Assembly: GCF_003991155.1 (NCBI RefSeq)
Contig: NZ_CP031293.1
DNA: 64,000 bases
DNA from: Escherichia coli
GTDB lineage: Bacteria; Pseudomonadota; Gammaproteobacteria; Enterobacterales; Enterobacteriaceae
Strand: one strand, 5' to 3'
Of this stretch, positions 36,401 through 38,303 are shown one piece after another. Position numbers: made by a program. Within the stretch, counting starts at the first letter, position 1, and each line of letters begins with the position of its first letter.

Positions 36401-38303
36401 TTACGTGGTGTGAACGATAACGCGCAAACGCTGGCAAACCTGAGTAATGCATTGTTCGATGCGGGCGTGATGCCGTATTACCTGCATGTGCTCGATAAAG
36501 TACAGGGCGCGGCGCATTTTATGGTGAGTGATGACGAAGCACGGCAGATTATGCGTGAGTTGCTGACACTGGTGTCGGGATATCTGGTGCCTAAACTGGC
36601 GCGAGAAATTGGCGGCGAACCCAGCAAAACGCCGCTGGATCTCCAGCTACGCCAGCAGTAACTGATTAAACAGGGAAGTTTAATCTTTGCACGTTGCATA
36701 ACCTTTAATTATTCATATACATTGCTGTTGTTACTCTTTATATAATCAACACCAATAATTAACCTTTCTTTTCTGTTTATATAGAGTGAGTACGGCTATT
36801 TATGTTATTTTAACAACTATTACTACCAAGCCCATTTATCTGGCTTATAAACTAAAATTAATTATTTAATTGAGAAATGGTTAGGGAGAACCTACATGGC
36901 CATAAGCATCAAGGGTGTTAATACCGGTGTTATTCGCAAGAGTAATAATTTCATTGCACTGGCGCTGAAAATTAAAGAGCCTCGCAATAAAGAATCGTTG
37001 TTGTTTCTGTCTGTCATGGAACTGCGCGACCTTCTGATTGCGCTGGAAAGCCGTTTGCATCAAAAGCATAAACTGGATGCTGCTGCACGCCTTCAGTATG
37101 AGCAAGCTCGCGATAAAGTCATTAAGAAAATGGCAGAAAATATCCCAGAAATTCTGGTTGATGAGCTTAAAAATGCCGATATTAATCGTCGGGTTAACAC
37201 GCTGGAACTTACCGATAATGAGGGTGAAAATCTTACCTTCGTATTAACGCTACATGACGGTAGCAAATGTGAGTTAGTCATCAATGAATTGCAGATTGAA
37301 ATGCTGGCGCGAGCAATCATTCATGCAATTAATAATGCGGAAATGCGTGAACTGGCATTACGTATTACCTCACTGTTAGATTTCCTGCCGTTATACGACG
37401 TTGACTGCCAGGACAATGGCAATCTGGAATATGACACCTATTCCCAACCGGAATGGAAACATAACTTGTTCAACCATTATCTGGCGGTGCTTTACCGCTT
37501 TAAAGATGAAAGTGGCAAAGAACAATTTAGCGGCGCAGTGGTGAAAACGCGTGAAGCAACGCCGGGTAAAGAAGTGGAGGCGATCACTCGCCGAATGCTT
37601 GATTTCAGCCCACGACTGAAAAAACTCGCGGGTGTACCATGTCAGGTCTATGTTCGCACCGTAGCGGCAAATAACGCCCAACCGCTAACCCAGGATCAAT
37701 GCTTACGCGCGCTGCATCACTTACGTGTTCAATCCACCAGCAAAACGGCACCGCAGGCGAAATAATCCCATCTGTTTTACTACGAGGCTGGAAGTATCCA
37801 GCCTCTGGATCACATCAGTTCGGGCACTTATAAACCTGACCGATAATCTGGCTATCCGTCGGGACAAAACTGGACAACATTCCCTGCGACGGGCTGCTGA
37901 TGCCATAAATCACGTTACCGCCCATTGCAGCCGCCTGGTTGCGCAGATCGTTTGCTGCGCCGCGCATAGAACCGCCTTCTTCTCCGTGTTGCCCGGAAAG
38001 CCAGTTGCTTTGCTTACCTGTCGCAGTACCAATCAGCTGACACTCTGCACCTGGCTGCTCGTCCACAATGCGTACACTCTGACCGGCAGCACTCAATTCG
38101 TTGCTGGAGCTACAACCCGCCATCAGTAGCGCGGCACCGACAATCCCTGCTAAGTATTTTACGTGCATGTTATTCCCCATAATCAATGAGCTGGACGCCA
38201 CTCGCGTCTGTGTGTGAATCTTATACTAAAAAGATGACTAAAAGAAAAACCCCCAGACATTTCTGCCCGGGGGTTTGTTTATTTCTGCGAGGTGCAGGGC
38301 AAT

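Follow-up and report, generated by a model that had tools for sequence, protein, structure and literature searches.

The window analysed here, a 64,000-nucleotide stretch of an Escherichia coli contig (NZ_CP031293.1, assembly GCF_003991155.1), spans the efp–epmB–yjeJ–yjeI–groEL region and contains an AT-rich block made up of yjeJ and the spacer that precedes it (36662–37765). We read this block as the promoter, leader and coding sequence of an ancient gene that belongs, as a stand-alone member, to a family found in microcin modules, and that may have kept an orphan immunity-like role; taken as a whole, we hold this reading to be evenly poised between right and wrong. As first described the block was ordinary (an annotated y-gene with an AT-rich promoter), and what is new is its context: a core E. 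coli gene of unknown function has a family tied to exporters of double-glycine peptides in at least three genomic contexts. The statement of the first-pass annotation that the function of yjeJ is unknown is formally still true, and the microcin-module context now supplies a specific lead.

YjeJ relatives in exporter gene clusters

The evidence for the module link comes from 11 loci that carry divergent YjeJ-family members (21–33% identical to E. coli YjeJ) and that were recovered from Klebsiella grimontii, K. quasipneumoniae, K. pneumoniae, a Scandinavium-like genome, Entomohabitans, Budvicia and five metagenome contigs. In all 11, the YjeJ gene starts 9–29 bp after the stop codon of a Peptidase_C39 ATP-binding cassette (ABC) transporter gene and on the same strand, and a gene for a HlyD-type membrane fusion protein (MFP) lies 5' of the transporter wherever the sequence reaches that far. 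Each cluster with sufficient flanking DNA additionally holds one to three small genes with double-glycine leaders (e.g., MKELTVFEMEQIAAG and MKQLTVFEMEAISGG) and glycine-rich, hydrophobic cores, mostly upstream of the MFP gene; their products have weak, sub-threshold Pfam matches to MccV and Bacteriocin_IIc. The module thus reads as microcin-like precursor(s), MFP, C39-peptidase ABC transporter and, last, YjeJ. In two loci (L057 and L058) microcin-like genes are found downstream of YjeJ, which places it inside the module. Judged by gene content and order, the cluster has the architecture of a putative class II microcin system.

The microcin-like genes encode 80–122 amino acids (aa), stand in tandem as one to three copies and have glycine-zipper-rich cores with weak matches to MccV or DUF5862 (coordinates within the loci: L053, 1356–2379; L059, 2692–3492; L051, 789–2488; L057, 7071–8564; L066, 1619–1960). 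In the Klebsiella, Entomohabitans, Budvicia and related loci they are located between a fimbrial operon and the MFP and C39-ABC genes, and these chromosomal loci may correspond to the PDI/S-like Klebsiella microcin loci that cinful found to be near-universal (PMC9746304).

Seven of the 11 loci (six genome-derived ones, Budvicia excepted, and one metagenome contig) adjoin yjeI, that is, they occupy the slot that yjeJ holds in E. coli, and usually have a fimbrial usher and adhesin operon upstream; yjeI is a constant neighbour of YjeJ-family genes across genera. Three genomic contexts were recorded altogether: the yjeI–groEL slot, the Budvicia locus (L049, from a different family, with neither yjeI nor groEL) and a locus beside OprD and SurE genes (L066). 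One locus (L061) carries two copies in tandem, in the order ABC transporter, YjeJ-B, LuxR-type regulator and YjeJ-A (41–42% identical to E. coli YjeJ), convergent with yjeI. Further copies reside on Serratia plasmids of 38–56 kb (one of them next to a Tn3 transposase gene) and form a fourth clade. In a neighbour-joining tree the stand-alone, E. coli-type copies group in one clade (bootstrap 59–71%), and two other clades are exporter-linked. The Klebsiella module genes have a GC content of 32–47%, as against 55–58% in yjeI and groEL, and the AT-rich block beside yjeI is in that genus a genuine island.

Within the modules YjeJ outpaces the exporters in divergence and roughly keeps up with the peptides. 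Across eight loci, identities amount to 75–86% for the ABC transporter, 67–78% for the MFP, 39–75% for the microcin-like peptides and 26–44% for YjeJ (approximately 80% overall for the exporters versus approximately 33% for YjeJ). This pattern fits the published rule for class II microcins of conserved exporters with variable core peptides and immunity proteins (PMC9746304). The same study reported that almost every assembly of several Klebsiella-clade species has PDI/S-like microcins, and noted that immunity genes are hard to identify. In one of our loci (L059) the gaps measure 209, 67, 94 and 55 bp, and so leave no room for a classical small immunity gene.

Age, synteny and selection

Within E. 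coli, the yjeJ segment was found in 5425 of 5426 complete genomes (5383 of them cover at least 80% of it). A locus scan using one genome per species and a nine-sequence query subset (the 23-sequence alignment being too divergent) returned 49 loci; with three E. coli reference loci added, and mislabelled or truncated contigs and non-syntenic loci removed, 48 loci from about 15 genera share a single gene order, in which efp is divergent from epmB and yjeJ, and these two converge on yjeI and groEL. The genera comprise Escherichia, Citrobacter, Pseudocitrobacter, Kluyvera, Superficieibacter, Salmonella (subspecies arizonae and diarizonae), Trabulsiella, Intestinirhabdus, Yokenella, Kosakonia, Phytobacter, Pluralibacter, Atlantibacter and others. 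Over these loci YjeJ identities range from 97% down to 35%, compared with 82–98% for EpmB and 92–100% for GroEL. Pairwise ratios of nonsynonymous to synonymous substitution rates (dN/dS) of 0.04–0.2 denote purifying selection on yjeJ, whose dN is 3.5–5 times that of epmB in comparisons with Citrobacter and Salmonella.

From epmB to yjeI the window carries no mobility signature (integrase, tRNA, direct repeats or insertion sequence), and in other E. coli strains (K-12, O157) only repetitive extragenic palindromic (REP) elements were seen at the yjeJ borders. We conclude that yjeJ is an ancient core gene of E. coli, fixed at its position in the Enterobacteriaceae and not recently imported. The phylogenetic distribution thus shows an old gene, and the label ‘horizontally acquired’, if meant as a recent event, is contradicted by near-universal presence, synteny, the missing mobility signatures, normal codon usage and purifying selection alike. 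What survives of a xenogeneic origin concerns the wider family, as YjeJ paralogues do reside in AT-rich islands and on plasmids.

The epmB–groEL interval acts as an insertion hotspot. In Kosakonia, a chemoreceptor-like gene is inserted between yjeJ and yjeI (same-size gaps are present in Phytobacter), and Citrobacter youngae has a 572-aa gene of unknown function between epmB and yjeJ; the coordinates listed for insertions in the slot are 6968–8686 in L036 and 4060–5778 in L011.

Three E. coli-type or Enterobacteriaceae yjeJ loci came from public assemblies that bear labels from outside the Enterobacteriaceae, namely Bacillus coahuilensis m4-4 (L004), a Bacteroidales metagenome-assembled genome (L016) and Chryseobacterium sp. 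18061 (L046). Their YjeJ identities are 98%, 98% and 41%, respectively, and the last has the full efp–epmB–yjeJ–yjeI–groEL context; these occurrences are probably due to contamination, chimeric binning or mislabelling.

The YjeJ protein and its predicted fold

The yjeJ product is a full-length match to the Pfam family PF15922 (YjeJ), with E = 1.5e-173 and 576 bits (gathering cut-off 27); residues 1–283 align to positions 1–283 of the 283-position profile. It is a small family, with 99 representatives (at 50% identity) in a set of 1.84 billion proteins; it has no NCBIfam model and returned nothing meaningful from PHROGs. A phage-defence link was dropped, as the PADLOC match was at chance level (E = 0.03).

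YjeJ is a soluble protein without transmembrane segments, for which AlphaFold2 with a 23-sequence alignment yields a confident model (predicted local distance difference test score 93, predicted template-modelling score 0.88). Its N-terminal half is predicted to adopt a PUR/Whirly-like fold with repeated beta-beta-beta-beta-alpha units, and its C-terminal half forms in the model an alpha/beta domain without a clear structural relative. The structural matches named for this fold are Pur-alpha (3k44), two cyanobacterial entries (2it9 and 2nvn), MRP1/2 and SsgA, all of which belong to the PC4/Whirly-like fold group; no Foldseek hit against the PDB fell below E = 1e-3. At the sequence level, no Pfam or PDB match assigns YjeJ to the PUR, Whirly or PC4 families (the best hit of a profile search against PDB sequences had E = 2.3), and hhalign comparisons between the structural repeats were marginal (E = 0.014–0.03), so that no sequence-level internal repeat is claimed.

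Conservation is shared out over two regions, the N-terminal 45 residues and the C-terminal domain, and the two invariant residues (W187 and K217) lie in the latter. Most family members are acidic (isoelectric point 5.0–5.7, net charge -6 to -10), whereas those of E. coli and Citrobacter are mildly basic (8.3–8.7).

Base composition of the block

The first-pass annotation had described yjeJ and its upstream region as markedly AT-rich in relation to the flanking epmB and groEL. Its coordinates are exact, position 36662 being the base directly 3' of the epmB stop codon, yet the gene that adjoins yjeJ on the right is yjeI and not groEL (Table 1). As a whole, the block has 41.8% GC where the window has 50.4%, which puts it at the 5th percentile among windows of its size; GC is lower still in at least three further stretches of the window (23.3–24.4, 49.5–50.2 and 57.4–58 kb). 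The spacer is a true outlier: only 0.03% of 234-nt windows have a lower GC content (minimum 28.2%), its TpA density is three times that of the window, and mixed A/T tracts (W-tracts) of at least 6 nt hold 41.5% of its bases compared with a window mean of 7%. The ‘long A/T runs’ reported upstream exist as mixed W-tracts of up to 19 nt, while homopolymers reach only 4 nt. Another short local spacer (ecnB–ecnA) has 29% GC, and orthologous epmB–yjeJ spacers are mostly AT-rich (mean 37% GC).

The open reading frame (ORF), by comparison, lies at the low edge of normal. Its GC content of 45.3% ranks third from the bottom among yjeJ and 25 neighbouring genes (z = -1.2 relative to the latter); GC is normal at first codon positions, low at second (z = -1.6) and 45.5% at third positions (z = -1.4), and its synonymous codon log-likelihood is average (z = +0.26 against local genes). 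The AT-rich zone extends about 600 bp into the ORF, the last third of which has a normal 52% GC. The composition claim stands for the spacer and holds mildly for the coding sequence, whose codon usage is normal. In several genera E. coli-type yjeJ has a host-like GC content (63% in Pluralibacter, 52–54% in Kluyvera).

More AT-rich than the yjeJ ORF is the stretch at about 23300–25800, which includes the lowest-GC 1.1-kb stretch of the window (36.9%) and contains a YjeO-family gene (34% GC), a hypothetical gene (40% GC), a frameshifted IS630 transposase gene and a second YjeO-family gene; it makes a stronger case for recent acquisition than yjeJ does. Beyond about 48400 (after a tRNA-Phe gene) the window stops matching strain 2016C-3878, whose integrase and following genes are not translatable there. 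This, together with the low-GC stretches at 48.7–50.2 and 57.4–58.2 kb, suggests a different island at the pheU site.

Expression signals and flanking elements

In the upstream regions of 18 loci, sequences were scrambled apart from two conserved blocks (Table 1). The distal one, TGTTATTTTAAC, is kept in Escherichia, Citrobacter, Kluyvera, Pseudocitrobacter, Trabulsiella and Yokenella amid scrambled surroundings and would represent an extended -10 element, implying a transcription start near 36818 and a leader of about 77 nt. The proximal one, ATGGTTAGGGAGAACC, holds six of the nine invariant columns of the upstream alignment (A6); a local hairpin predicted there was not significant (z = -1.8).

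In K-12, genomic systematic evolution of ligands by exponential enrichment (SELEX) showed that the sigma70 holoenzyme binds the epmB–yjeJ spacer in vitro, and the promoter was termed ‘constitutive’ (PMC3946193, Table 2). We located the predicted promoter of that study (TTAACC-17-TAGAGT) in the window; as its conservation is limited to Escherichia, the main yjeJ promoter may be a different one. The conserved TGTTATTTT element and the SELEX-predicted promoter are alternative candidates for directing yjeJ transcription. A scan with the consensus promoter detected a minus-strand sigma70-like site inside yjeJ (37504–37476) and none on the plus strand of the spacer. In a genomic SELEX study of minor sigma factors, a holoenzyme-binding peak within the gene (K-12 position 4371850, approximately the middle of 36896–37765) appears in the section on heat shock (RpoH; PMC5493296). 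The only small ORF in the spacer (27 aa, GTG start) was disregarded.

The first-pass annotation had further likened the upstream region to DNA silenced by nucleoid proteins. The in vitro binding of sigma70 counts against silencing, as does the detection of YjeJ protein in K-12 grown in lysogeny broth (LB; PMC9508795), and the spacer is not marked among those with any of the 987 in vitro H-NS sites of K-12 (PMC3946193). The spacer core of K-12, the strain from which the SELEX and proteomic evidence comes, is near-identical to that of the window, as is that of O157. No match to the high-affinity H-NS motif TCGATAAATT was found in the spacer within two mismatches, which is a weak test. Occupancy of the spacer by H-NS in vivo is possible but unsupported.

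Table 1. Features of the epmB–yjeI interval, in window coordinates.
Feature	Position	Strand	Description	Basis
epmB–yjeJ spacer	36662–36895		234 bp, 28.6% GC; regulatory region and presumed 5' leader of yjeJ	composition
SELEX-predicted yjeJ promoter (TTAACC-17-TAGAGT)	36759–36787	+	position verified in the window	in vitro RpoD-holoenzyme SELEX (PMC3946193)
Conserved block TGTTATTTTAAC	36803–36814	+	TG at 36803–36804, TATTTT at 36806–36811	footprint
Conserved block ATGGTTAGGGAGAACC	36877–36892	+	Shine–Dalgarno AGGGAG at 36883–36888, 7 nt 5' of ATG	
yjeJ coding sequence	36896–37765	+	289 aa; predicted soluble two-domain protein	
Stem-loop	37784–37805		between convergent yjeJ and yjeI; 9-bp G+C-rich stem, GAGGCTGGA-AGTA-TCCAGCCTC	
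yjeI	37815–38168	-	DUF4156 lipoprotein; convergent with yjeJ; 55% GC; GC-normal right boundary	

The stem-loop that separates yjeJ from yjeI folds better than expected on both strands (z = -3.5 on the plus and -4.0 on the minus strand) and looks like a terminator, though without a U-tract; an Rfam search of 36400–38400 returned no RNA family. Alignment with the window places a REP insertion directly 3' of this stem-loop in K-12 and O157. Structural variation of the locus within E. coli consists only of REP elements and bacterial interspersed mosaic elements (BIMEs), which are found on both sides of yjeJ in K-12, on one side in O157 and on neither side in the window (identical over 36400–38000 to strain 2016C-3878). 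The K-12 elements comprise about 160 bp after the epmB stop codon and about 150 bp after the stem-loop, of which O157 has the downstream one only. These sites map to 36662–36690 and 37806–37815 of the window (1763–1922 and about 3066–3219 in L001), and the upstream K-12 insert is flanked by an imperfect 28-nt duplication (CAGCAGTAACTGATTAAACAGGGAAGTT and CAGCAACCTGTCATTAAACTGGGAAGTT).

In amoxicillin-evolved K-12, ampC amplicons repeatedly have a boundary in the yjeJ/epmB spacer, in at least six of the lines listed (PMC12625342). It is plausible that the K-12-specific REP element in this spacer, which the window strain does not have, serves as the recombination substrate for these amplicons. 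The ampC gene of the window (32347–33480) seems interrupted, its sole long ORF covering the C-terminal 231 aa (32785–33480), and is annotated as a pseudogene with an internal stop in the best-matching strain.

A possible immunity-like role

Our preferred explanation combines these observations as follows. The AT-rich block would be yjeJ plus its own AT-rich promoter and leader region, and the E. coli gene a stand-alone copy from a clade paralogous to the exporter-linked ones. An AT-rich module fills the same slot next to yjeI in Klebsiella, Entomohabitans and the Scandinavium-like genome. The low GC content of the E. coli block may reflect both its AT-rich spacer and descent from, or long association with, an AT-rich accessory module. 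In the weakest step of the proposal, YjeJ would be a cytoplasmic peptide- or protein-binder that confers self-protection against the microcins of its module, and the E. coli copy an ‘orphan’ immunity-like gene. An immunity role is suggested by the position of YjeJ as the last gene of the operon, by its standing as the fastest-diverging part of the module and by the lack of room for an immunity gene in L059. Purifying selection in genomes that encode neither microcin nor exporter would be explained only by a function that is independent of microcin production. An export-chaperone role for E. coli YjeJ was dropped, as near-universal purifying selection would be unexpected for a chaperone without cargo or exporter.

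A bolder version of this proposal, which we regard as unlikely, makes the YjeJ family an unrecognised fifth component of PDI/S-like class II microcin systems, acting as a cytoplasmic, fast-co-evolving immunity or precursor-handling factor, with the E. coli orphan protecting against the microcins of Klebsiella-clade gut bacteria.

Several observations count against the preferred explanation. Classical class II microcin immunity proteins are small membrane proteins, which a soluble protein of approximately 285 aa without a transmembrane segment does not resemble. The microcin-related role of the E. coli gene is extrapolated from a paralogous clade (26–39% identical), most exporter-linked loci sit in one chromosomal slot and are thus not fully independent, and midpoint rooting of the neighbour-joining tree leaves the ancestral arrangement unsettled. 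The divergence of YjeJ correlates weakly with that of the microcin-like peptides (rho = 0.40, p = 0.07, with pairs that are not independent). A 75-aa ORF with two predicted membrane helices directly follows the exporter-linked YjeJ gene in L064 (3273–3500); it resembles a small immunity protein of the classical kind and could be the real immunity gene there, and small genes of this kind may have been missed by gene callers elsewhere. Low GC is not a constant trait of the family, as Pluralibacter and Kluyvera illustrate. In the window, tblastn with microcin, MFP, ABC transporter and regulator proteins recovered no credible remnant of a module (the spacer has no precursor gene with a double-glycine leader, and neither C39-ABC nor MFP genes lie beside yjeJ), and no phenotype was reported for a yjeJ deletion that another study used as a neutral linked marker (PMC10679819).

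Alternative explanations

The alternative that we rate highest, while still considering it rather unlikely, is that yjeJ is an ordinary native gene, with an AT-rich promoter and leader and a lowly expressed, fast-evolving ORF that favours AT-rich codons, next to which islands merely insert at a hotspot. The modest deviation of the ORF (z = -1.2 to -1.6, confined to second and third codon positions, with first positions and synonymous usage normal) agrees with it, as do the similarly AT-rich ecnB–ecnA spacer, the host-like GC content of the Pluralibacter and Kluyvera genes and the record of insertions in the slot (REP elements in K-12 and O157, the Kosakonia chemoreceptor gene and the 572-aa gene of C. 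youngae). What it accommodates poorly is that the pairing of YjeJ with an exporter recurs beyond the hotspot, amid the quite different neighbours of the Budvicia locus and L066, and in three deep clades with gaps of 9–29 bp, which would not be expected repeatedly from insertion near an existing gene; nor does it account for YjeJ lying inside the module where microcin-like genes follow it. Quite improbable, in our judgement, is that YjeJ is a PUR/Whirly-type single-stranded nucleic-acid binder (a regulator or a nucleoid- or RNA-associated factor) unrelated to microcins. The predicted fold, the mildly basic E. coli and Citrobacter proteins and a plasmid copy that adjoins an SprT-like gene are compatible with such a function, with the fold providing the only support for nucleic-acid binding. 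Yet no structural hit reached E = 1e-3 and no sequence match to the PUR, Whirly or PC4 families exists, most family members are acidic (unusual for nucleic-acid binders), SsgA uses the same fold for protein binding, and the two invariant residues fall outside the PUR-like half.

We consider very improbable the interpretation closest to the first-pass annotation, in which H-NS coats and silences a horizontally acquired islet made up of yjeJ and its upstream region, which for this reason stays AT-rich and still lacks a known function. AT-rich DNA with TpA steps and W-tracts is of the kind that H-NS prefers, and the spacer, with an AT-rich zone continuing into the ORF, has this character. Moreover, yjeJ is among the listed targets of Nac, which binds AT-rich DNA (PMC7417836), and relatives do occur in AT-rich islands and on plasmids. 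Such an islet is, however, hard to reconcile with a gene that is all but universal in the species and syntenic in about 15 genera, has no flanking mobility genes or repeats in the window, uses normal codons and yields a protein detectable in LB-grown cells, and whose spacer lacks both an in vitro H-NS site and a close match to TCGATAAATT while its promoter is called constitutive in the same SELEX study.

Significance and comparison with known systems

The literature that we searched contains no mention of YjeJ in connection with microcin export modules, and the link appears to be unreported. It makes the function of yjeJ testable and, should a conserved soluble partner be confirmed, would improve the annotation of microcin loci and bear on cross-species immunity in the gut. 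More generally, a low-GC stretch next to core genes need not be a recent import and can be what remains of an accessory module that became fixed long ago.

Compared with PUR, Whirly and PC4 proteins, YjeJ shows no sequence-level relation, has an extra C-terminal alpha/beta domain and belongs to a mostly acidic family. With the H-NS-silenced xenogeneic islands of E. coli and Salmonella, yjeJ shares a very AT-rich upstream region, an ORF with lower GC than its neighbours and relatives in islands and plasmids; it differs from them in being core and syntenic, free of mobility signatures and normal in codon usage, with detectable protein and an in vitro constitutive promoter without an H-NS SELEX site. 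Class II microcin clusters (of the MccV, MccL, MccPDI and MccS type) consist of a double-glycine precursor, an immunity gene, an MFP and a C39-peptidase ABC transporter (PCAT). The window departs from this arrangement in holding a YjeJ-family gene alone, and the modules themselves in ending with a soluble protein of approximately 285 aa that is absent from the canonical four-gene cluster; the loci of YjeJ relatives nevertheless match it in their glycine-rich precursors of 80–122 aa, MFP, C39-ABC, variable cargo and conserved exporters. Known class II microcin immunity proteins are small membrane proteins, and immunity by YjeJ is putative. Like orphan bacteriocin or toxin immunity genes, which persist in the absence of their cognate toxin, E. 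coli yjeJ is a stand-alone copy of a fast-diverging module part, is present species-wide without toxin or export genes, and is maintained by purifying selection.

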